Origin: a virus | Taxonomy: Duplodnaviria > Caudoviricetes | Virus record (IMG/VR): IMGVR_UViG_3300005077_000086 | Span: 1 to 36,189 of that record | Direction: 5' to 3' (one strand) | DNA length: 36,189 bases | Shown: positions 1,468-36,189 of the stretch, piece after piece | Numbering within the stretch: the stretch's first letter is position 1 | Layout: the number at the start of each line of letters is the position of its first letter | The notes under the pieces: generated by a model | Told to the model about the DNA's origin: nothing | Database searches by the model: none | The model's input: the letters and a program-made list of their open reading frames with translations, nothing else | Made by a program: the position numbers and the translations under genes

Positions 1468-1496
1468 TTGACATTTATAATAATAATTGATATATT
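1468..1496 (+). promoter_or_regulatory. sigma70-type promoter of the moron-like gene
   Basis: TTGACA(1468-1473)-17 bp-TATATT(1491-1496) in an AT-rich intergenic region. Confidence 0.75.
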
Positions 1497-1520
1497 GATA
1501 TTGGTTAATGGAGGTACACT

Positions 1521-1910
1521 ATGAAAAAAATATTTACAGTTATTATCAGTCTTTTAATTATCAGTGCTTCTGCCGAGAAGATCAACTGGAATAAAGTCAT
1601 TATTGGTAAGTGGCTATGTAAAAATGTGTTGTTATGGGAAGAGCACTCTGTTGAAGATTTAATTTTTGAATTCAGAAAAAATAATAAAATGATTATTTAT
1701 TATAAAAATAATTCAATACACGGAACAGGAATTTTTAAAATAAAAAATAATATTATCCAATTCGGAACAAAAGAAAGTCAATCATATGAATTATTTGATT
1801 ATAATAACAATGAAATAATTCTCAATATAATAAAAGGTAAAAATGAGGTATTTACTTGTGAAGAAGATGGTAATTTTCCATCATCATTTACATTCATTAA
1901 AATAAAGTAG
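1521..1910 (+). CDS. exported protein with signal peptide, possibly lipocalin-like beta-barrel (moron-like)
   Basis: MKK + hydrophobic stretch + ASA cleavage motif; IIGKW motif; own promoter and GGAGG RBS; very AT-rich. Confidence 0.65.
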   Translation: MKKIFTVIISLLIISASAEKINWNKVIIGKWLCKNVLLWEEHSVEDLIFEFRKNNKMIIYYKNNSIHGTGIFKIKNNIIQFGTKESQSYELFDYNNNEIILNIIKGKNEVFTCEEDGNFPSSFTFIKIK

Positions 1911-2259: not shown

Positions 2260-3032
2260 AATATCCTCTGTCTCTTTAACTGGTTGAATGTCCATCGTGC
2301 TTTATAATCTCCATCAGTTCTATAACATATATCAATATCAGCTATATTTTTATATAAATTTTTCCATGTTTTTTTTATTGTATCTCCTCTGGAAGTGGCA
2401 ATAAACGAGTCATATATTTCTATGAGTTCATGTGTCTCACTGTATTTTATGACTGCATTTTTATTCCCTGTTATTGAGTATGGATAATCCCATAATTTCA
2501 GTGAACAGGCAAAGCCTTTCGGTTTTTCAAAGTGCCGGCCAGATTCCATGCCGATAATCAACTCTTCCTCATCAACGCCGGATAATTCAATTACCGCGTA
2601 TAGAACATCCGGCAGAATGTTAAACCGTATTCTATCATAATAAAATTTACCGTCTTTAATTATTACATCAAGAGTAATAAATCCACGGTAATTTTCTGCT
2701 GAAAATCTGCCGATTAACCGTTCAAATATTGTCTGTATTTTTTTAATTTTACCAGGAAATACTGTAATACAATTCGACCCTATGTTCGGGCCTTGTGATC
2801 CATTGAGTAATTTATTATCATTGATTATTACCGTCCAGAACGAAAATTCTTCGCCGTTCCAGAATGCTGTAAATCCAGCGTCAATACCGTTAATTTTTTC
2901 AATAAGAAGTTTTCCGTCTCTGATAAACTCGCCGTCTATTTCCGCACTGTTATATCGTATTCTCGGAACATCAAGACCAACATCATAGGCGGTAGCAATC
3001 TCGTACTCTCTCCGTTGCAGGTCTGCTATCAT
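2256..3032 (-). CDS. degenerate PurD/GARS-like ATP-grasp protein
   Basis: LLIEKINGID…FWNGEEF…KLLNGSQGPNIGS…YRGFITLDVII…YRTDG resemble PurD EExLxGxE, KRxxxGDxGPNTGG and YRxDIG motifs. Confidence 0.6.
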   Translation of the reverse strand: MIADLQRREYEIATAYDVGLDVPRIRYNSAEIDGEFIRDGKLLIEKINGIDAGFTAFWNGEEFSFWTVIINDNKLLNGSQGPNIGSNCITVFPGKIKKIQTIFERLIGRFSAENYRGFITLDVIIKDGKFYYDRIRFNILPDVLYAVIELSGVDEEELIIGMESGRHFEKPKGFACSLKLWDYPYSITGNKNAVIKYSETHELIEIYDSFIATSRGDTIKKTWKNLYKNIADIDICYRTDGDYKARWTFNQLKRQRIL

Positions 3033-6000: not shown

Positions 6001-7217
6001 TCAATATTCATCTGTTCAGCAATATCTCCAGGTACAAGATTTCTTTCCCGTGCCACTTCTTTCAGTATTCTCTCTGCCTTCGGTATCGCTCTGAATGTTC
6101 TTAGTGTTCCTATTGTTGCCAGATTAAGAATAAAATTTTCTTTCGTTATTTCATCGCCATGGAGTGCCGCACTAACACCAGTCATCAATGCCGTTTCTGC
6201 AGGAATATCAAGTGCTGTTTTCGTTACTTTTTCTGCTCTCAACGCTTTATTCACCGCGTCTTCAATTACTTCATTTCTGTTTACTGCTTTACGTTTTACT
6301 GCCCTTTCAATATTTTTAGCATATACAGATTTACCAACACCGCTGGCAACTCTTTCAATGAGTGCGGCACCTCCGCCAATAGCGGCCCCCATACCGAAAC
6401 CCTTCAATCCCTCGATACCAGCAGAAGCCAAATCAACAGGCAGCCCGGCATTTACATCGTCAAGGGCCCTTCCAGCAGCCCCATGTGTTCCAAACGCCAT
6501 CCCTCCCGTTGCGATTTTTCCAGCGATTGCAGGAAGCCCTTTTGTCGCAAGACCTCCTATTGCTCCACCAGCAGCGAATACAGGTGCGTCAGTCGCTATA
6601 CTTCCAACAGTATGTGCAAGTTTTTCAGGTAATGTCTGTGGCTGATACTGATAGCCAGAGGGATGCAGTTCAGTTATTCCGAGTGCCTGGAGACCTTTCC
6701 CGACAACAGAACTTTCCGGTGAGTTAAATATTGCAGGAAGAACACCTCTGTCCTTTTCCTCTTTCCATCGAATAAAATCTGCCTTTTCTCTGGGTGTTGC
6801 ATCTGACCAGTCTCCAAGAGGGCCCTTCTTTATTCTCTTTTCGATATAGTTTTTTGTCGCATCTGTATTTGAAAAATGGCCAATCCAATCAATGGGCTTT
6901 TCTTCTATTTCTGCCGATGGCTCTGGTGGGCCTACAAAATCACTGAACCGTTCTGGATCATATTTTTTTTCAAGCTGAAATTCTTCACGTTCACGAGCCA
7001 GAGATTCATTCCGCATCTGACGAAGCGGATTATCATCGCTCTGCCATTTCTCCTGTGCAAATTCGACACCTCTGTCTACCTTCCCCCCGGCCCATCCAAC
7101 AGCACTTTCAAACAGGTCTATCGGGTTCCAGTTGTATTCTGGACTTTCTTCTTTTTCTGGTTCATCGGGAGAAATAACTCCTGCCGCGATTAAAAGATTT
7201 CTTTCTTTTTCTGTCAT
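3036..7217 (-). CDS. large internal virion / DNA ejection protein
   Basis: 1393 aa; Gly/Ala-rich hydrophobic segment followed by long helical region; distal position in a podovirus late operon. Confidence 0.65.
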   Translation of the reverse strand: MTEKERNLLIAAGVISPDEPEKEESPEYNWNPIDLFESAVGWAGGKVDRGVEFAQEKWQSDDNPLRQMRNESLAREREEFQLEKKYDPERFSDFVGPPEPSAEIEEKPIDWIGHFSNTDATKNYIEKRIKKGPLGDWSDATPREKADFIRWKEEKDRGVLPAIFNSPESSVVGKGLQALGITELHPSGYQYQPQTLPEKLAHTVGSIATDAPVFAAGGAIGGLATKGLPAIAGKIATGGMAFGTHGAAGRALDDVNAGLPVDLASAGIEGLKGFGMGAAIGGGAALIERVASGVGKSVYAKNIERAVKRKAVNRNEVIEDAVNKALRAEKVTKTALDIPAETALMTGVSAALHGDEITKENFILNLATIGTLRTFRAIPKAERILKEVARERNLVPGDIAEQMNIERKVLVDILKSPESAKAFIEESAKKAQEVKKDKAESFDIREMMRRGSQPKIREKIDSSVQTMLDSIDRLQDPVSIYNDFGNLDKGSLENPDFVNLKPRYQQEVLRKVQAELTRRYDPDYHDIMTQLNDFEYEVFRNIENEYKSYDNQPEWGRWSKAEYDSMIAEKATERRTRIEKTAAQTQVLKEIEAKRREVVRSDIKEADKAIELEKLQAKEREILGQNFVTEDTAREIRQSFSEDPAILKIAEDVAAGNLKSETTMDEINRAYKLFNKTFVTSRGAMVAKETKAGALMDKVIKNMRLYEEQYAANWMQDFDNAVKKYTPEEQKQAIRFLDLTPERYNEVAGQPSERVVQLATELDTINKSVVAELKKYGLTVEELQTYYRHVIKPEFQEGGKNRAEFLEWMGEELQRMYPDSKVEVDYALDAKKANIERALEYLKSKTDVDSSTGKYEKMSSFQITREFKNMPEKFYYTEKPVEIMMEYFEDAGNRVARARAFGADDSILKNLLIDINMEAGTRYDPRTAEGIMKRAVDLADTVSNRNRPTDLESQWLANKIINFEIVSKMGLSQLGQITQMLEPLVHSSAKSYFKALSAMSGISKTMTREQAKEFSNRATSSLRVAHKTILGSLYGESTTGQGFLKLTKFRSADIRSRYIGIMTGLFHAEALVDKVNTYDAKTLKLADRLNTAGSWRKFNKMAENSGLRLSAGEKMSIHRARMFINRMERVDMSLGKLSKDANGKYFLTEADKMRMARQMEVNTNYRAHFEDLPEIFNKSPWMRVLTQFKSFSYEKTKHTIRDVVWQEAKMGNLLPMTKLLIAAGIGAQPVILARSLISGRDLPKDAWDWIWKSIGVAGTLGTFEWMLSTINYKDTHMGAAHGDALSLIFGIVDSVKKKETPDKFRHMAGVAASYTPIWGRTLKDIISGKREVEGIQDVFPATKLVTDGLPEKFWDKTVPDFMYEKPKTAADYYREAGKKYSSKYREAAKKYRR

Positions 7218-21015: not shown

Positions 21016-22700
21016 TACTGCATCCTCCTCTGCTGTTGTTGTTGCTGTGCCATCATCTGCTGCTGCTGTTTCATCCTCGTGAGCATCTGTTCTTTCGTGC
21101 TTTTCGGTATATCCGCCAGTTCGATAATAGTCTCAGGGTCAACCTGTCCCCCGTACTGCTGATATTGCAGGAGTGCCTGAAGTGTCGCCAGGCGGTGGGT
21201 CGGAGAATCAACGGTCTCGTCAACAACAGCGTCATACCGTGAACCTTTCCTGAGTTCTTCAAAATTCTGAGGGAACGGTATGGCCGGCCCAAGAATACGC
21301 TGTATTTTACTTGTATCAAACCTGGTATTTATAATTTCAATCAACTGTCTTCCAAGACGTGTCTTCATCGCTGAAAGGTTATCAAATAACTCCTGGTGGC
21401 TGATAAGTCCCTGCTTCTGTCTGAGCTGTATGGCGATACCGGGGTCTTTCGCTTCACGCATCCCCAACAAATCAGGGTTCGCTCCGATCATCTTCATGTC
21501 TTCACCAAACGCCAATTCCAACTGCATCACGCTGTCGGGGAACGCAGGCGGCTGTATTCTCGTGAGTTCCTTTCCGGGGGTCTTCTCAATATACTTCCCC
21601 GCACCGCCTGAATTTATAGACTGAATATTATCAACAGCCCCTCTGTCTGCTATCCATCCACTCGAAGCAGTGGTATTAAGTATGTGTAGTATCTGTGATC
21701 TTCTTTTGTTCTTTTCCCTCTGCGCGTCTCTGAGTACCCGTACAATACCTGACAGTTTAATGTCCCAATCATCGTAACTTGACTCAAAAAATCCAAATAT
21801 CGGGTGGAATGGGTAATCACTGGTTTCATACGGATTTTTACCATCATACGCAACAATCCTCTCTTCGATAACCGTTGACAGCCGTATTTCAGGCATCCTC
21901 TTTTTAGCAACGACATACTCAGGGTGCATCATAACGAACGCTCCCAGTGTCTCCTCGTCCCCTTCCCATACTTCCATATCTCCGGGGTTCTGGGAGTTCA
22001 CCAGTACCGTCTTCGTCACATAGTCCCTGCGCCAGAGTTCCATGACCTTCAGCCTGTTCCCTGAATCATCAGGCATTTTAGGGTATTTTAATATCTCTCC
22101 GTCATCGTCAGGCCCTCCTTCGGCCTTCGCTATCTCTCCGCTTTTTTCAGGATACAGAAGTTTTAACTGGTCTTTATGTACGCGGGAGTGTCTGATTATA
22201 TACGCGCAATCACTCAAATCAGGCTGTGTCATCCCGGGATCAAGAAAAAAACTAAACGGACTTTCTCTCTTTATTATAACATCACCATTCAGAATATCAT
22301 AATCATACACAATACTGAGACTCAGCATCCCAAGACCGCCGATCAGCGCGTCCTTGAACGCCCCCGAAACTGCCATCTCTGCCAGCCGGTCTTTCGTCAT
22401 CCATTTAATTAACTGACTGTAAACTTCAGCGATATACTCATCGCCGCCTTCTATGGGATAAATCTTTATCGCTGTCCTATTCTGCCGTTCATGCCCTGAA
22501 ATCAAATCAACATTCTTCTTTATATAGTTTAAATTCAGAGCAGGTATTTTCTTTTTCAGGAGGATTTCTTCATCAGCAGCAGACCACTGTTTACTCAAAT
22601 AAAATCTGTAATCTTCATCGGACTCGTCAAAATACGAACGCCACGCGGAACGTGCCTCGTGGTAATAATCACCGACCATCTGTATTACGTCTTTACTCAT
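21015..22700 (-). CDS. portal protein (P22-like)
   Basis: DYRFYLSKQW…PALNLNYIKKNVDLISG…GIVRVLRDAQREKNKRRS; Gln-rich tail; directly after the large terminase. Confidence 0.9.
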   Translation of the reverse strand: MSKDVIQMVGDYYHEARSAWRSYFDESDEDYRFYLSKQWSAADEEILLKKKIPALNLNYIKKNVDLISGHERQNRTAIKIYPIEGGDEYIAEVYSQLIKWMTKDRLAEMAVSGAFKDALIGGLGMLSLSIVYDYDILNGDVIIKRESPFSFFLDPGMTQPDLSDCAYIIRHSRVHKDQLKLLYPEKSGEIAKAEGGPDDDGEILKYPKMPDDSGNRLKVMELWRRDYVTKTVLVNSQNPGDMEVWEGDEETLGAFVMMHPEYVVAKKRMPEIRLSTVIEERIVAYDGKNPYETSDYPFHPIFGFFESSYDDWDIKLSGIVRVLRDAQREKNKRRSQILHILNTTASSGWIADRGAVDNIQSINSGGAGKYIEKTPGKELTRIQPPAFPDSVMQLELAFGEDMKMIGANPDLLGMREAKDPGIAIQLRQKQGLISHQELFDNLSAMKTRLGRQLIEIINTRFDTSKIQRILGPAIPFPQNFEELRKGSRYDAVVDETVDSPTHRLATLQALLQYQQYGGQVDPETIIELADIPKSTKEQMLTRMKQQQQMMAQQQQQQRRMQ

Positions 22701-24301
22701 GCCGTCATCCAGCTTCCTGCGTTCATATTATCATTCATGTTCAACGGGTCTCCGTCAAACACCTCTCCTTTTATTACATACGACCTCGTGGGGAACGTCA
22801 CTCCCATGGCCGTGTCCAGTATTCTGCTCATGGCATCCAGCACATCATCGTGAGGACTGTACGGGAACGGTATATATTCTTCCCTCACAAATACTTCAGT
22901 CAAATCCTCAATATCCCCATCTTCAGTCTTATATATCAACGATCTCGGTATTATAAATCTCCCTTTCTGAAAATACGGCTGCAACGCCTTTATCCTTTCA
23001 GTCTTCGCTGACCGGGCCTGAAGCGGGATAATATTAAAATATACTCCCTCTTCTTCCTGCATCTGATTGATATAATCAATATCAGACTGCATCCCGACCT
23101 TCTCATACCCAACGTCTTTCACTCCCCATGACTGAATCAATTCTTTCAGCTTCTGCCACTTCTGACTCATGCTCAGCCTGTCTCGTATCATATCAACCAG
23201 CCAATAATTCCTAAGTGAATCAGTTCCTATCACGCACATTACCGTGTAATCACTGCCCTTCTTTTTACTCCCCGCCGGGTCAACAACGATATACAGGTTC
23301 ATGTACGGCCTGTCGCTTCTCCAGTATTTCAGCCAGTATTCCTTAAATCCCTGCATTGATTCCGCTGTCGGGTCCTGCAGCATCTGGGCTGAATATATAT
23401 ACTCTCCCTGTGTTTCGTACTTCTCTGTCAATTCATCTTCAGTGAGAAATACCGGAATACCGCATCGCTTCCGTACCCCCTCTTCATCAACTTCAGCAGG
23501 ATATACTCTCGGCTTCCACTTCTTTTGTTTCATCAGCTCGCCGTAGGAGTCCTTAAAACTAAACCGGGTTCCGATCATCCTTTTCGTACCGTCCCTTGTA
23601 CCCAGGTTCAGAGACAGCCTGAACGCGTCAGTGGCCTTTTTTACCATGTCCGGTGAGTTCACTGTCCGGTCGGTTATTATATCATCGTACACCATGACAC
23701 TGAAGTGCTTGCCAATCGGTGAGGAGTCTACCAGTCCCCACGCCTCAAAACTCGCTTCAGGAAAATTTTTTTTCCTCTTTACATACAGGCCCTCGTCCTC
23801 TGACCACTTCGGCGCATCCTTGAACGGATTATCATAAAATATATCAGGGAACGCCCGGTGCAGGAGTGTGTTCTGCTCAAGTTCATGCTTAATTCTTCTG
23901 AGGTGTGATTTCGCCAGCACCCGTGTATGAGAAAATATCGCGATACGTTCTTCCGGTGATTGTAATATCTGCCATATCGGAAGAGCGAAACTGAGGATAC
24001 TCGACTTAAAGTGTTCCCTGCTCCAGAGATCAATCGTGAAATTATAATCATCCTGAGACTGATATATCCTTGCTATAAGGAACGGGTGATTTACCGGCAT
24101 ACCGAGAACAAAATAACACAGAAAAAATAAATCCTGTTGACTCATCCATCTGACTGTTTTCAAATATCCTGCGTTATTTTTTGTCTCTTCACATTCATTG
24201 AGATACCGTGCCAGTTCAACATAATCAAACCTGTATTCATCTTCATGTATTCCCAGTTCTTTTAACTGAGGGTCTGCCGTCACAGGCTTGAATTCAAACA
24301 T
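22697..24301 (-). CDS. terminase large subunit
   Basis: Walker A variant SREHFKS, Walker B MVYDD, IGTRF, nuclease domain VDPA…SDYT…HDDVLDA. Confidence 0.92.
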   Translation of the reverse strand: MFEFKPVTADPQLKELGIHEDEYRFDYVELARYLNECEETKNNAGYLKTVRWMSQQDLFFLCYFVLGMPVNHPFLIARIYQSQDDYNFTIDLWSREHFKSSILSFALPIWQILQSPEERIAIFSHTRVLAKSHLRRIKHELEQNTLLHRAFPDIFYDNPFKDAPKWSEDEGLYVKRKKNFPEASFEAWGLVDSSPIGKHFSVMVYDDIITDRTVNSPDMVKKATDAFRLSLNLGTRDGTKRMIGTRFSFKDSYGELMKQKKWKPRVYPAEVDEEGVRKRCGIPVFLTEDELTEKYETQGEYIYSAQMLQDPTAESMQGFKEYWLKYWRSDRPYMNLYIVVDPAGSKKKGSDYTVMCVIGTDSLRNYWLVDMIRDRLSMSQKWQKLKELIQSWGVKDVGYEKVGMQSDIDYINQMQEEEGVYFNIIPLQARSAKTERIKALQPYFQKGRFIIPRSLIYKTEDGDIEDLTEVFVREEYIPFPYSPHDDVLDAMSRILDTAMGVTFPTRSYVIKGEVFDGDPLNMNDNMNAGSWMTA

Positions 24302-24313
24302 TCAATCTCCTCA

Positions 24314-24351
24314 AATGTTAGACACAACTAACATTCTTAGTCTAATCTAAC
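24314..24351. promoter_or_regulatory. two tandem operator-like palindromes GTTAG-N6-CTAAC over the late promoter
   Basis: AATGTTAG-ACACAA-CTAACATT (24314-24335) and CTTAG-TCTAAT-CTAAC (24336-24351). Confidence 0.55.
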
Positions 24352-24372
24352 AACTTTAAAAAAAAATGTCAA
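24344..24372 (-). promoter_or_regulatory. promoter of the late (terminase) operon
   Basis: Minus strand TTGACA(24372-24367)-17 bp-TAGATT(24349-24344); GAGGAG RBS before terL. Confidence 0.7.
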
Positions 24373-24387
24373 CTATTTTTTTATTTC

Positions 24388-24416
24388 TTGACAAGATAGA
24401 ACTATTCTACTATATT
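24388..24416 (+). promoter_or_regulatory. sigma70-type promoter, back-to-back with the late promoter
   Basis: TTGACA(24388-24393)-17 bp-TATATT(24411-24416). Confidence 0.75.
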
Positions 24417-24422
24417 ATATAC

Positions 24423-24495
24423 AGTTAATTAACTAATCCCCGGTAGGGTGTACCTTCCTTTAACCACCGATAACCACCATCCTGCCGGGGATATA
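24423..24495 (+). ncRNA. candidate trans-acting antisense hairpin RNA
   Basis: 15-bp stem 24436-24450/24478-24492 with two G-U pairs that form only on the + strand; loop GTGTACCTTCCTTTAACCAC is complementary to RBS regions at 25195-25208, 1502-1519 and ~25437-25448. Confidence 0.5.
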
Positions 24496-24502
24496 GACCA
24501 AA

Positions 24503-24721
24503 ATGAACATGATAAACAAAATAAAAGAAATTGTATCTTACGAAGAACCCCCCAGCCCGGATTTACAGCATGCTTATATATCCCATAAATACAACAACAT
24601 AACACATAATACTTTATATGGTAAAGAAATTATAGATTTAAGTGATAAACATAGAGAATTAATAATAATAGAAATTGTATCAAACTGCCAAATTGACAAT
24701 TCAGAAAAGTGCTTACCATGA
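24503..24721 (+). CDS. hypothetical protein
   Basis: 72-aa ORF downstream of the 24388 promoter; no clear RBS. Confidence 0.3.
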   Translation: MNMINKIKEIVSYEEPPSPDLQHAYISHKYNNITHNTLYGKEIIDLSDKHRELIIIEIVSNCQIDNSEKCLP

Positions 24722-25066
24722 TTGCTGGTTCTGAAACGTGCTTTTTGATGTTCCCTCGCCCCCTACGGGGCTCGGGCCCCCCCTCCCTCTAAAGCGCGCC
24801 TCTCCTCCTCAGCACTTGACCACAATAAAAATCAATTACCACAAAGCAGCAAATTATCACAGACAAAGCAAATTATCATATCTCACTACAATACAAGATA
24901 CTATACCATACTATACTTATTACTTACACATACAGGAATATCCCGGCGGGAAAAAGAAATCCCCGGCAACAATACCGAGGACAATCACAAGAGGAAACCT
25001 TACTCAATGCTAATACTCCAACAATATCAATACTACCACTCATCACAACAATGTCAATTCTTTTTT

Positions 25067-25082
25067 GTTAGTCTCGTCTAAC
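25067..25082. promoter_or_regulatory. third GTTAG-N6-CTAAC operator-like palindrome
   Basis: GTTAG-TCTCGT-CTAAC upstream of the 25129 promoter. Confidence 0.5.
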
Positions 25083-25128
25083 TTTTTGAATTTTTTTTTT
25101 AAAAAACATAACTTTTTTTATTTTTTGC

Positions 25129-25157
25129 TTGACAAAACCTAAGCGGTATTGTATATT
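25129..25157 (+). promoter_or_regulatory. early promoter
   Basis: TTGACA(25129-25134)-17 bp-TATATT(25152-25157), preceded by T/A tracts (UP-element-like). Confidence 0.75.
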
Positions 25158-25209
25158 ATTATCATTGAGAGTGGTTACTCAATAAACAAAATCAAAAGGA
25201 AGGTACACA

Positions 25210-25377
25210 ATGAGCACAACGCAAGCATCACAAAAAACAAGACTCTTTAACGGCTGCAGGGTTTTTATGATCCTAAAGAAGGGCCAGGAAGCTCTGGTGT
25301 CCTGCTCCAGGCAGGACGAAGAAACGAGGCTATTTTTAATGGGCCTTTTAAATGTTCGGAAAGTTATTTTCTGTTAA
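25210..25377 (+). CDS. 55-aa first early protein (absent from the ORF track)
   Basis: MSTTQASQKTRLFNGCRVFMILKKGQEALVSCSRQDEETRLFLMGLLNVRKVIFC*; AAAGGAAGG RBS. Confidence 0.55.
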   Translation: MSTTQASQKTRLFNGCRVFMILKKGQEALVSCSRQDEETRLFLMGLLNVRKVIFC

Positions 25378-25450
25378 GCCGCCCGGTTAAGCCGTGGCCG
25401 TCAATGGCACGGCGGCGAAGTCTCAAAAATTAAAATAAGGAAGGTGCAAA

Positions 25451-25852
25451 ATGAACGCAGTAATTAGAATCACAGAGTACTACCAAAATGATTGCCAACA
25501 CCCAATGGGAATCAAGGCAACAATCGAGACATATGTCGACGAAACCGGAGGATGGGACATGATCGGCACTCCAGAGGAGTGCGAAAAATGGCTCAAGGAA
25601 GAAAATAATAAACCGAGATACCTGGGGCATGGAGTAGCAGGCTATTATCACATAATATGTACCATCGACTGGGACGATCCTGATTATCAGGCATGGCTGG
25701 ATAATCAGGATTGGAACGGATGCCCGAGTGAGGACGGCGAGGATTATGACGCAAACTGTTTATGGGCGGAAAAACGAGCAATCCGGAACAAGAAAAACAT
25801 GATCGTCCAGGATCAAAACGGGAGACTGTATATAGTTTCTGAAAAAAAATAA
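25451..25852 (+). CDS. hypothetical acidic early protein
   Basis: 133 aa; TAAGGAAGG RBS. Confidence 0.65.
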   Translation: MNAVIRITEYYQNDCQHPMGIKATIETYVDETGGWDMIGTPEECEKWLKEENNKPRYLGHGVAGYYHIICTIDWDDPDYQAWLDNQDWNGCPSEDGEDYDANCLWAEKRAIRNKKNMIVQDQNGRLYIVSEKK

Positions 25853-25924
25853 TAACAAAGCCCGTGCCGGCCATCGTGGGAGGCCAACGGGCTCAGATCA
25901 TTACAATACAAGTGAGAGAACCGC

Positions 25925-26179
25925 ATGAATAAAAAAGAACTATCAGAAGCGGCCAGAATTCTGGGCCGTGCTGGAGGACTCGCGAAGTCAAAGAAGAAAG
26001 CCGAAGCCGTCAAAAAAAACGGCCGCCAGGGAGGAAGGCCGAGACAGTGGGAATACCTGGTCACAATAGGCGAGCACACTTTTTCCTTCTCGTCACGGCA
26101 GGACAGGGCAAATTTTATCCGGGACAAAGTAGTACCCAAAGGACTAAAATACAGTACATCAAAAAAAGAAATTCAATAA
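25925..26179 (+). CDS. small basic DNA-binding protein
   Basis: AARILGRAGG…KKAEAVKKNGRQGGRPR motif (AT-hook-like GRP), typical of phage early proteins. Confidence 0.6.
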   Translation: MNKKELSEAARILGRAGGLAKSKKKAEAVKKNGRQGGRPRQWEYLVTIGEHTFSFSSRQDRANFIRDKVVPKGLKYSTSKKEIQ

Positions 26180-26328
26180 CCATTATCACGCAGTAACTTT
26201 TTAATGGCCAGGCGGATTACTTCACTGGCCGTTATCCATTTCCCTGTTTTGTTACTCAAATCACGAGCGAGCAAATTTACTGCTTCCAGGTCTTCAACAG
26301 ATATTCTTATCTTCTTTTCTTTGTCCAT
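26173..26328 (-). CDS. ribbon-helix-helix (CopG/Arc-like) regulator (absent from the ORF track)
   Basis: MDKEKKIRISVEDLEAVNLLARDLSNKTGKWITASEVIRLAIKKLLRDNGY*: beta-strand KKIRIS plus SEVIRLAI helix. Confidence 0.6.
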   Translation of the reverse strand: MDKEKKIRISVEDLEAVNLLARDLSNKTGKWITASEVIRLAIKKLLRDNGY

Positions 26329-30120: not shown

Positions 30121-30387
30121 ATGGGAATTGAACAGGACATTAAAACAATTATCACACTGCTGGAGTCTATCGCAGGAAAAAAGGCAGCAGCACAGATAGA
30201 GACAGCGTTCAGCGGAGCTGGTATCCCGGCAGCCACAACCGATTTCGCAACGATCAAATCAACAATACCGTCTTTGTCTAAAGACCAGATAAATCAATGG
30301 TCTGTGATGTGTATTGAAAAAGCAGTCAGCGACAAGCAAAAGGGAGCAATAGCTAAAATATTTAAAACAGCCCTGGGGGGACAATGA
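30121..30387 (+). CDS. hypothetical protein
   Basis: 88 aa; AGGAGG RBS. Confidence 0.6.
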   Translation: MGIEQDIKTIITLLESIAGKKAAAQIETAFSGAGIPAATTDFATIKSTIPSLSKDQINQWSVMCIEKAVSDKQKGAIAKIFKTALGGQ

Positions 30388-31317
30388 AAATAACAAACAA
30401 TTACAATCTCCCTCAGAGTATTGTTAATGCAATAAGTTTCGATGAGCGCGTCCCGAAAGAAAATTATATATCAGTCACCAGACTAATAGATTCTCCACTC
30501 ATCCACCAGCTTATGAAAGAACATTGGGACGACATCAAGCAGGATGCGTCAAGTATGCTATGGTCACTGCTCGGTAAGGCCGTACATTATGTACTCGATA
30601 ATTTTATGTATGAAATAAAAGAATATGAGGCATCAGATGAAGATATTATCAAGATTGAAAATATTTTATCTAAAGCATCGCAACAAATACTGGACTGAGC
30701 GCAGATTTAATCATGAAGTAGACGGATGGATTGTTAGCGGTCAGCCGGATTTATACAATGATGGTGTTATTGAAGATTACAAGGTAACATCATACTGGGT
30801 GTTTCTAAACGGCGTCAAGCCTGAATGGGAACGTCAGCTAAACGTCTACGCCTGGGGTACACGCAAGGACGGATACGATGTCACCGGGCTTAAGATTCAC
30901 GCAATACTGAGAGACTGGCAGCAGGGTAAAATTTATGAATCAGGTTATCCGTCAATACCGTTCGTGACGTATGATGTTCCGCTCTGGACATTTGAGGAAC
31001 AGGAAGCGTATGTTCGCGAACGAGTCAGGATACACAAAGAACCTGCCGGACAATGCACTTCCGAAGAGCGATGGGCACGGGCTGATACATGGGCTGTCAA
31101 AAAACTTGGACGTAAATCGGCAATAAGGGTATTCGATAGTCAGTCAGAAGCAATGACGTATTTCAATAAAACATTCAGAGTACCGTCAGAAATGAATAAT
31201 CATTATATTAAAAAACGTCCAGGCAAAAACGCAAGGTGCGAAGGTTATTGTCAGGTGTCAGAATTTTGTCCGTATTACAAAAAGGAGACTGTTGATGAAA
31301 TTGAACCTGGTATTTAA
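30384..31317 (+). pseudogene. Cas4-like PD-(D/E)XK exonuclease split by a +1 frameshift
   Basis: ORF 30384-30698 carries ISVTRL…LGKAVH; ORF 30625-31317 carries ERRF…SGQPD…EDYK…QLNVY…C…YCQVSEFC; removing one base near 30671-30675 joins them. Confidence 0.7.
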
Positions 31318-34195: not shown

Positions 34196-34453
34196 GATGC
34201 GGCGGAGCTACAAGAGGAGTTGGCCGCCTTTACACATAGCCAATGGTCTGGATGGATGATGTATTTATTTAGCAAATGCAAGAGCACGACTGACGGCAAA
34301 GATAATGTCAGTATGATTATTCCGAAATGGGCAGTAGATAGGTGGAGGCGACAAATGAATACTGAATATAAAGACTTACCAGAGGAAGAAAAGGAAAGCA
34401 ACAAACAAGAGGCGGCCAAGATGATGCAAATAATTATCAGCCGTTTCGCCTAA
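34103..34453 (+). CDS. hypothetical phage protein (RyR-repeat-like motif), cassette cargo
   Basis: LAAFTHSQWSGWM…RWRRQMNTEYKDLPEEEKES; stop codon is the TAA of the next TAAC. Confidence 0.6.
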   Translation: MEICKSHMECFTKICSLCKDYEPLSSYAVLGDAAELQEELAAFTHSQWSGWMMYLFSKCKSTTDGKDNVSMIIPKWAVDRWRRQMNTEYKDLPEEEKESNKQEAAKMMQIIISRFA

Positions 34454-34515
34454 CATGCAGAGCTAAACGACGTGGCGAAGCCATGTAGCGAAGCGGCGTT
34501 TAGCGAGTGTTAAGT
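34448..34515. mobile_element. attC-like hairpin (site C)
   Basis: GCCTAAC…GCTAAACG/CGTTTAGC…GTTAAGT with two GC-GAA-GC mini-hairpins. Confidence 0.8.
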
Positions 34516-34550
34516 GAAGTTGCCGACATGACAGCAACAAGGGAGTGAAT

Positions 34551-35244: not shown

Positions 35245-36093
35245 ATGAAGCTAATTAGAGTGTTTCCACGAAAGACAAACGCAACGCCTGACGACGAAGG
35301 TGTGCGGTTTACCGAGCCGGGATTATTTGACGAGGCCGACGAAGTGCGTGTATCCGTTACATGGACATGGGACAAGCAGAGAGGGGAAGAACTGGCCGGG
35401 GCGTGGAGAGCCGTTACAGATAAGATTATGATCGGTGGCCCTGCTTATGATGATCCGGGCGGTGAATTTGAGCCGGGAATGTATGTCAAAAAAGGGTATG
35501 TTATGACGAGCCGTGGCTGCCCGAATAAGTGCTGGTTCTGTTCTGTTCCGAAGCGCGAAGGGAACATTAGGGAGCTTGAAATAAAAGACGGGTATAATAT
35601 TCTTGATAGTAATTTGCTGGCCTGTTCGCCTGATCATATCACGGGTGTGTTTAATATGTTGAAGCGACAGAAAGATAAGCCAAGGTTCACCGGAGGACTT
35701 GAAGCGGCACGGATGAAGCCGTGGATTGCCGATCAGTTAAGGGAGTTGAAGCCGCACGTTGCATATTTTGCGTATGACACACCGGACGATTACGAACCGC
35801 TTGTTGATGCGGTTAAAATGTTACGGGATGCAGGGGCTATGTATGATCGGGTTTATTCGTGCTATGTTCTGATAGGATATGGGGGTGACACGATAGAGAA
35901 GGCCGAAAAACGACTACAACAGGTTTTAACGCTGGATGTCATGCCGATGGCTATGCTATTCAATAAGGCCGATGGCAGGGAAGATCGTAGTAAATGGATT
36001 AAATTTCAGCGTGAGTATGCTAACCGGATTATTGTTGGTTCTAAATTAACCGCCGCCAGGACGGCGGCGCATAAGGGCGCGAATTGCATATAA
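35245..36093 (+). CDS. radical SAM protein, cassette cargo
   Basis: TSRGCPNKCWFCSVP (CX3CX2C), LDSNLLA, CYVLIGY; stop codon is the TAA of the next TAAC. Confidence 0.85.
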   Translation: MKLIRVFPRKTNATPDDEGVRFTEPGLFDEADEVRVSVTWTWDKQRGEELAGAWRAVTDKIMIGGPAYDDPGGEFEPGMYVKKGYVMTSRGCPNKCWFCSVPKREGNIRELEIKDGYNILDSNLLACSPDHITGVFNMLKRQKDKPRFTGGLEAARMKPWIADQLRELKPHVAYFAYDTPDDYEPLVDAVKMLRDAGAMYDRVYSCYVLIGYGGDTIEKAEKRLQQVLTLDVMPMAMLFNKADGREDRSKWIKFQREYANRIIVGSKLTAARTAAHKGANCI

Positions 36094-36155
36094 CATGCAG
36101 AGCTAAACGACGTGGCGAAGCCATGTAGCGAAGCGGCGTTTAGCGAGTGTTAAGT
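36088..36155. mobile_element. attC-like hairpin (site E), same body as site C
   Basis: From TAAC onward identical to 34451-34515. Confidence 0.75.
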
Positions 36156-36189
36156 GAAGTTGCCGACATGACAGCAACAAGGGAGTGAA
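36091..36189 (+). repeat. 99-bp exact direct repeat of 34451-34549 at the contig end
   Basis: TAACATGCAG…GGGAGTGAA identical in both places; upstream bases differ (GCC vs ATA). Confidence 0.95.

Follow-up and report, generated by a model that had tools for sequence, protein, structure and literature searches.

What does the hairpin do that lies, behind a promoter of its own, in the divergence zone immediately upstream of the large terminase gene (terL) of this phage? A first-pass annotation had read it as a multi-target antisense RNA directed at phage ribosome-binding sites (RBSs), acting as an RNA switch on the immediate-early genes in the manner of the C4 and CI RNAs; all the sequence strings that it quoted are present where it placed them. 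We analysed the whole virus record of 36,189 bases, referred to here as the window, which is classed as linear and rated 66% complete. PHROG matches among the 48 ORFs scanned reveal a podovirus-like layout, with terL (22697-24301), portal, and major head and tail genes on the minus strand and replication initiator, primase-helicase, nuclease and radical-SAM genes on the plus strand. No integrase or CI-type repressor family was matched by the 48 ORFs of this 66%-complete record, leaving the idea of a switch, in the lysis-lysogeny sense, unsupported. Of 10 genome loci with a TerL match, the two closest come from bins titled Leptospirales and Spirochaetota, at 56% and 50% over the TerL N-terminus, a pointer to the host that amounts to no more than a hint. 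In 401 genomes from the phylum of G003, neither the family of ORF 25210 nor 9.5 kb of the window had a credible match.

Several features elsewhere in the window were observed in passing. An identical 99-nt repeat (z score -2.0) is present at 34451-34549 and 36091-36189, the second copy forming the end of the record, and likely marks an assembly break at a repeated structured element. Two overlapping ORFs at 30384-31317 match the N- and C-terminal parts of a single exonuclease family (phrog_2139), and we read them from these matches as a split or frameshifted gene. Stable hairpins without an Rfam match lie between early genes at 25860-25897 and 26201-26234 (z scores -2.4 and -3.2), the latter at the convergence of ORFs 25925 (plus) and 26173 (minus).

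Table 1. Features of the hairpin locus and of its predicted target genes
Feature	Coordinates	Strand	Remark
Sigma-70-type promoter TTGACA-17-TATATT of the candidate RNA	24388..24416	+	Back to back with the terL-operon promoter
Predicted terL/late-operon promoter	24344..24372	-	Overlapped by an operator-like palindrome
12-bp perfect palindrome	24423..24434	+	At the predicted start site; 5' mini-hairpin or operator
Main hairpin	24436..24492	+	15-bp stem 24436-24450/24478-24492 with two G-U pairs; loop 24451-24477 (27 nt)
Anti-RBS segment	24448..24461	+	Exact complement of 25195-25208; 11 of 14 nt in the loop
Two TAACCAC copies	24461..24477	+	24461-24467 and 24471-24477; complementary to (G)TGGTTA in both promoter-proximal leaders
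ACCA	24497..24500	+	Directly 3' of the extended stem; absent in L097
Early-operon promoter	25129..25157	+	Same TTGACA-17-TATATT consensus
Weak 5' leader hairpin	25164..25183	+	GTGGTTA in loop; predicted target site a
RBS of ORF 25210	25195..25208	+	Predicted main target site
First early ORF	25210..25377	+	55 aa; no assigned function
RBS of ORF 25451-25852	25437..25448	+	Third predicted target
Promoter of stand-alone gene 1521	1468..1496	+	Same TTGACA-17-TATATT consensus
Leader and RBS of ORF 1521	1502..1519	+	Second predicted target; at the predicted mRNA 5' end
ORF 1521	1521..1910	+	129 aa; hydrophobic N-terminus

A promoter-driven hairpin specific to one strand

The consensus promoter reported ahead of the hairpin was confirmed as TTGACA-17-TATATT at 24388-24416. 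Exactly three copies of this promoter are found in the window (at 1468, 24388 and 25129; 0.02 expected); one precedes the hairpin loop, and the other two drive leaders that hold the complement of the loop. The annotation had further claimed that the 15-bp stem, owing to its G-U pairs, works only on the transcribed strand, and folding agrees with this. On the plus strand, 24422-24500 folds at -28.1 kcal/mol with a z score of -4.58 (0 of 200 shuffles as good), as against a z score of -0.33 for the same region on the minus strand (65 of 200 shuffles as good). Both the MFE and the centroid predictions consist of a single stem and a single 27-nt loop, which contains one G. Three further pairs (24433-24435 with 24494-24496) extend the stem to 18 bp.

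No U-tract after the stem and no intrinsic terminator was found on the plus strand, so the 3' end of the RNA is undefined. On the downstream strand C exceeds G in most 100-nt windows up to 25100, a composition that would suit factor-dependent termination followed by trimming back to the stem. The ACCA behind the stem is possibly an RNase P-type 3' end, or part of an RNase P substrate.

Other regulatory-looking sites surround the hairpin. The palindrome GTTAG-N6-CTAAC occurs three times (24317-24332, 24336-24351 and 25067-25082; 0.61 expected, 3 of 100 shuffles), twice at the predicted terL promoter, where one copy covers the -10 element, and once between the divergent promoters 25057 (minus) and 25129 (plus), a placement that points to a protein regulating both late and early promoters. 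On the minus strand, the promoter-like site at 25057 and a terminator-like hairpin at 24982-24959 could yield a second RNA of ~70 nt. Its 3' arm and that of the main hairpin have 10 nt in common, and 9 nt of this RNA are complementary to the 3' arm of the hairpin in the early leader; among the start regions, this candidate (about 25023-24950) had no target above chance (58 of 100 shuffles). A run of 6-9 C, mostly after TA, was seen 100-650 nt upstream of terL in 7 of the 21 regions inspected (window 24777-24783; L004, L007, L082, L085, L209, and L101, where it lies at the contig end). It is possibly a packaging or genome-end signal; if so, the RNA gene would lie at one end of the virion DNA and the early promoter at the other.

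Complementarity of the loop to three translation starts

Complementarity to phage leaders, the core of the earlier proposal, was recovered at all three sites that it had named. Segment 24448-24461 is the exact complement of 25195-25208, the duplex with 1502-1519 comprises 17 pairs with one mismatch and one bulge, and that with 25437-25448, ahead of ORF 25451, comprises 12 pairs including one G-U. Three of the 14 bases complementary to the first site lie in the stem, so that pairing needs fraying at a cost of about 5 kcal/mol. As the window holds 10 exact inverted repeats of 14 bp, such a repeat is ordinary by itself; what is unusual is its placement, with one arm in a promoter-driven loop and the other forming the RBS of another promoter's first gene. 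With the 25210 leader, the predicted pairing is antiparallel and has two parts, 13-14 pairs that cover the RBS and 7 pairs to the upstream GTGGTTA, and 17-18 nt of the mRNA bulge out. In the predicted 1521 duplex, both motifs are adjacent and make one 17-pair helix at the predicted mRNA 5' end. The hairpin that had been described on the early transcript (25164-25183) is predicted to form and to present GTGGTTA in its loop, but the 78-nt stretch around it folds no better than shuffles (z score -0.07).

We ranked the potential targets by pairing a query made of the loop and three stem bases with positions -50 to +15 of 50 ORF starts. Duplex energies were -29.1 kcal/mol for 25210, -25.2 for 1521 and -24.1 for 25451, and -17.5 for the next of the 50 starts. 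For the shuffle nulls 49 starts were used, ORF 24503 being excluded as cis. None of 1000 dinucleotide shuffles reached the best or the second value, and with the 8-nt anti-SD-like (anti-Shine-Dalgarno-like) core fixed and the rest shuffled, the best value was reached 2 times, the second 3 times and their sum 0 times in 1000, counts that overstate significance because the loop and the targets were chosen post hoc. When the opening costs of both RNAs were charged, the same three starts led the 49 (-23.2, -16.9 and -13.4 kcal/mol; next -11.8), with a margin of just 1.6 kcal/mol between the third target (25451) and the next start. In a genome-wide scan of 40-nt windows that ignored accessibility, a G-rich coding stretch near 7109 (minus strand) beat the 25210 leader, and the 25210 and 1521 leaders ranked directly after this stretch.

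Motif counts point in the same direction as the ranking. Within 20 nt of the 50 starts, GGAAGG is present at two and GGT[AG]CA at three, all of them predicted targets; TGGTTA within 45 nt is confined to two of the 50, again both predicted targets. The loop deviates from a plain anti-SD sequence by the same extra base as do two target sites. The restriction of these motifs to the targets indicates that the loop match exceeds a generic anti-SD match.

None of the three target ORFs has a PHROG or Pfam family match. ORF 25210 has two homologs (64% and 46%) whose alignments start at residue 1, supporting its start codon, and ORF 25451-25852 (133 aa) has one partial homolog. The product of ORF 1521 resembles lipocalin-like models (TM about 0.64); a lipocalin-like fold is thus suggested as a lead only.

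Conservation of the scaffold in a relative

TerL scans of viral, metagenome (35 of 64 parts) and genome collections gave at least ~200 loci, mostly below 55% identity. In the closest TerL relative, L002 (75%), the contig ends inside the start of the gene; further TerL homologs are at 61-67% identity. Among the 31 distinct strict promoters of the window and the TerL loci listed, one, that of L097, precedes a true homolog of the hairpin. L097 has a TerL fragment of 58% identity; the same promoter lies 74 nt away from the start of terL, followed by a different 12-bp palindrome at the start site and by a 15-bp stem, four pairs of which are G-U, closing a 30-nt loop that contains a single G. Its fold reaches a z score of -3.73 in sense and -1.77 in antisense. 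A hand-made alignment of the L097 and window stems reveals one-sided exchanges between Watson-Crick and G-U pairs, as well as gained and lost pairs, none of which breaks pairing on the transcribed strand. These changes, by preserving pairing, support a real RNA structure. Promoter, position and stem scaffold are conserved in one relative.

The L097 loop keeps AACC twice and AACCAC, and has no CCTTCC anti-RBS tract. Against the 8-10 starts of its own 1,949-base contig, which holds no early leaders, it paired no better than shuffles (100 of 100 and 190 of 300 as good), and it paired poorly with the leaders of the window (-6 to -11 kcal/mol). No second promoter of the TTGACA-17-TATATT class is present on this 1,949-base contig, and none of the relatives combines the RNA with its targets.

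At the same position in other relatives, the picture is more varied. L005, L084, L087 and L101 have, in short non-coding stretches, a promoter pointing away from terL, then a pyrimidine-rich anti-SD-like tract and a terminator-like hairpin. L085 has a similar tract, which reads as the complement of an SD sequence plus start codon, behind a promoter spotted by eye. The folds of all five differ from that of the window, and their contigs, which mostly stop short of the early region, contain no targets. No comparable trans RNA was seen among the strict promoters of the complete relative G001 (TerL 55%).

We also compared the longest helix that 16 hand-picked promoter transcripts could form with start regions. 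The window transcript reached 14 nt (0 of 100 shuffles), followed by L007 with 12 (2 of 100), L013 with 12 (1 of 100), L220 with 12 (6 of 100) and L014 with 11 (1 of 100); the remaining 11 of the 16 were at chance (at least 17 of 100 shuffles). At the L007 locus (about 1556-1665, plus strand), a promoter is combined with a hairpin, a 12-nt stretch complementary to the RBS of the first early gene, and a terminator, which makes a candidate RNA unrelated to that of the window. By energy, 163 of 500 shuffles were as good, and this apparent analog lends weak support to the logic of a loop facing an RBS. L007 also contains a type II hammerhead ribozyme (2664-2725, minus strand; 39.2 bits, above the Rfam gathering score), which lies immediately upstream of an early RBS whose leader motif recurs at two other early genes.

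Searches for the element elsewhere gave little. Rfam returned no match at gathering threshold in the window, only sub-threshold matches in 24300-25260 and 25330-26000, and no match for the candidate RNAs of six relatives; no C4 covariance model was among the 7 Rfam matches at E up to 10 in 24300-25260. An exact 19-nt loop pattern had 0 hits in viral contigs, and a stem pattern search gave 0 loci. The combination of promoter and anti-RBS pattern was met at 4 loci, which were rejected because none has the fold or a matching start, and a pattern of 3' arm plus AACCAC at 31 loci, rejected likewise with promoter and fold present in 0 of 31. A blastn comparison with GenBank phages returned just short A+T-rich promoter matches, and a look-up of sequencing runs listed none. 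A literature search, whose coverage left out most subscription papers, yielded no paper on the hairpin element. The 3' arm motif was not found in the six supplementary files searched of PMC10690425, and the available portion of bioRxiv 10.64898/2026.09.22.753630 holds nothing relevant.

Alternative readings of the locus

The operon that directly follows the stem in L097 raises the alternative that the hairpin is the 5' leader of a rightward transcript (of ORF 24503 in the window, of the operon in L097), which it would stabilise or attenuate. Its match to the early leaders would then be a relic, left by a small inverted duplication of one such leader, or an incidental anti-SD-like pyrimidine tract of the kind that arises because G-poor loops stay open. 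Such a leader would agree with the absence of a terminator after the stem, with the start of a strong-SD gene about 20 nt past the stem in L097, the loop of which has no detectable target, and with the occurrence of C-rich anti-SD-like tracts at the same position but in different folds in L005, L084, L085, L087 and L101. Two considerations make us regard it as unlikely. ORF 24503, directly behind the hairpin, has no SD sequence outside the stem and no homolog except itself; and to be a relic, the loop would need to agree, in two separate motifs, with two leaders that are 23.7 kb apart, and to outperform the core-fixed null as well.

A function at the DNA level seems quite unlikely to us. Here TGGTTA and GG(A)AGGTACAC would be sites of a phage transcription regulator downstream of the three promoters, inverted at 24388, and the hairpin would be a separate 5' structure. 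The inverted copy, however, coincides almost exactly with the unpaired loop of the hairpin, whose stem forms on one strand only. The shared motifs do lie 0-55 bp downstream of all three promoters, but the third site (25437) has no nearby promoter of the TTGACA-17-TATATT class, and the spacing of the two motifs is different at all three places. Similarly, the two TAACCAC copies are 10 bp apart, corresponding to one helical turn, whereas the AACC repeats of L097 have a spacing of 9 instead of the 10 of the window. That small ribbon-helix-helix-like ORFs are present (weak Pfam RHH_1 match, E 0.037), together with a separate operator-like palindrome set, is in favour of an operator.

Very unlikely is a decoy or scaffold RNA. 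In this reading the AACC/AACCAC repeats would bind a protein, or the loop would mimic an anti-SD sequence on host and late-gene mRNAs in general, and the early leaders would not be its main partners. In its favour, AACC twice and AACCAC are common to the window and L097 loops, AACC[AT]C also lies within the first 300 nt upstream of terL in L085, L087 and L101, and two late-gene starts, 18061 and 8647, can pair with the loop (-11.8 and -10.9 kcal/mol). Against it, AACCAC itself complements the leader motif, and among the phage starts compared, those with plain GGAG/GAGG (29 of 50) rank well below the three targets.

A model for the control of promoter-proximal genes

The locus has a promoter consensus, a strand-specific fold, complementarity restricted to three starts, and a scaffold conserved in one relative. 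A promoter of its own with a stable fold on the transcribed strand, and an accessible seed complementary to starts above chance, fit the general class of trans-encoded base-pairing sRNAs. Within this genome, the multi-target antisense RNA of the first-pass annotation is the reading best supported by target ranking, shuffles and motif restriction, and its scaffold is kept in one relative; the RNA itself is a prediction. We consider it reasonably likely that the hairpin at 24423-24500 acts in trans as an antisense RNA and prevents the promoter-proximal genes 25210, 1521 and 25451 from being translated.

In the proposed mechanism, host RNA polymerase would transcribe the RNA from about 24423 on DNA entry, simultaneously with its targets because the three promoters have one consensus. 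As there is no intrinsic terminator, the 3' end would be made by trimming back to the stem. The loop would then pair in trans with the leaders of 25210, 1521 and 25451 and thereby block ribosome loading, its 5' half covering the SD sequence and spacer and its TAACCAC half gripping the upstream TGGTTA, so that the 25210 leader would be gripped antiparallel at two sites. Pairing into a closed loop poses a winding problem, which is generally eased when the target sites lie close to free 5' ends. Accumulation of the stable RNA would cut the early burst of target genes, as a delay timer does, and in a cell already holding the phage, persistent RNA may silence the first genes of an incoming relative.

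A wider proposal is that a fixed scaffold with an exchangeable guide loop constitutes a protein-free master control, in which the loop of each lineage mirrors a private tag on its own first-expressed leaders, timing early shut-off and defining RNA-only superinfection-immunity groups in repressor-less phages. We hold this to be doubtful. If it were true, the L097 loop would stand for a different specificity, and L085, L087 and L101 would supply further forms with their terL-divergent RNAs. Independently of this wider proposal, one small RNA able to silence all promoter-proximal genes of its phage via a private leader tag would provide a compact, protein-free way for phages without a known repressor to end the early phase or to exclude relatives. 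The 60-nt one-loop design could also serve as a riboregulator scaffold.

Comparison with known phage RNAs

Cumulatively, these results establish a structured element that is real and conserved in one relative, and probably a trans-acting antisense RNA against the phage's own promoter-proximal genes. Its likeness to the C4 and CI RNAs, asserted from the beginning, holds for the mechanism but not for the family, as there is no Rfam match and the fold is different. Statements on known RNAs below refer to the available portions of the papers cited. C4 of P1/P7 has three stem-loops and is cut by RNase P; its b' loop partly occludes the RBS, and its a' loop binds upstream for specificity (PMC5320573). 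It controls an antirepressor (PMC8201110), and both C4 and P4 CI are RNase P substrates (PMC5499578). A two-site grip, with one segment on the RBS and the other upstream, is thus known for C4 and predicted here, where the two segments are halves of one loop. The long closing stem and ACCA of the window RNA could make it a substrate of RNase P, as C4 is (PMC5320573, PMC5499578). In contrast to the three stem-loops P1-P3 of C4, the window and L097 RNAs have one stem of 15-18 bp and one large loop, and the window RNA is without an Rfam C4 match. The window RNA also differs in having its own promoter and targets that belong to two other transcription units, at distances of 0.7, 1.0 and 23 kb. Whereas the target of C4 is the antirepressor operon of a temperate phage, no antirepressor is among the targets here, and no lysogeny genes were matched among the 48 ORFs scanned. 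We conclude that the window element would work like C4 and is not a member of C4 or CI.

Cleavage of the transcript that it controls releases P4 CI, with seqA upstream and seqC downstream, and CI causes premature termination; like the window RNA, it is a short structured phage RNA that pairs with two early-leader sequences (PMC4825925). The gene of the window RNA, by contrast with a CI cut from the transcript that it controls, is separate, and its sites are translation starts behind other promoters.

The antisense RNAs sar and OOP are cis-encoded opposite their targets. A 2025 review, in its available text, describes 24B_1, sar, OOP, aQ, STnc6030, VpdS and PreS (PMC12197685). Like the window RNA, sar (P22), OOP and aQ (lambda) and STnc6030 (BTP1), which gives superinfection exclusion, are phage antisense RNAs on phage mRNAs, but each has one target gene (PMC12197685), whereas the window RNA is encoded apart and has three predicted targets with a leader tag. 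None of the phage RNAs in the available text of that review silences several phage leaders via a shared tag; each acts on one phage gene, or on the host (PMC12197685).
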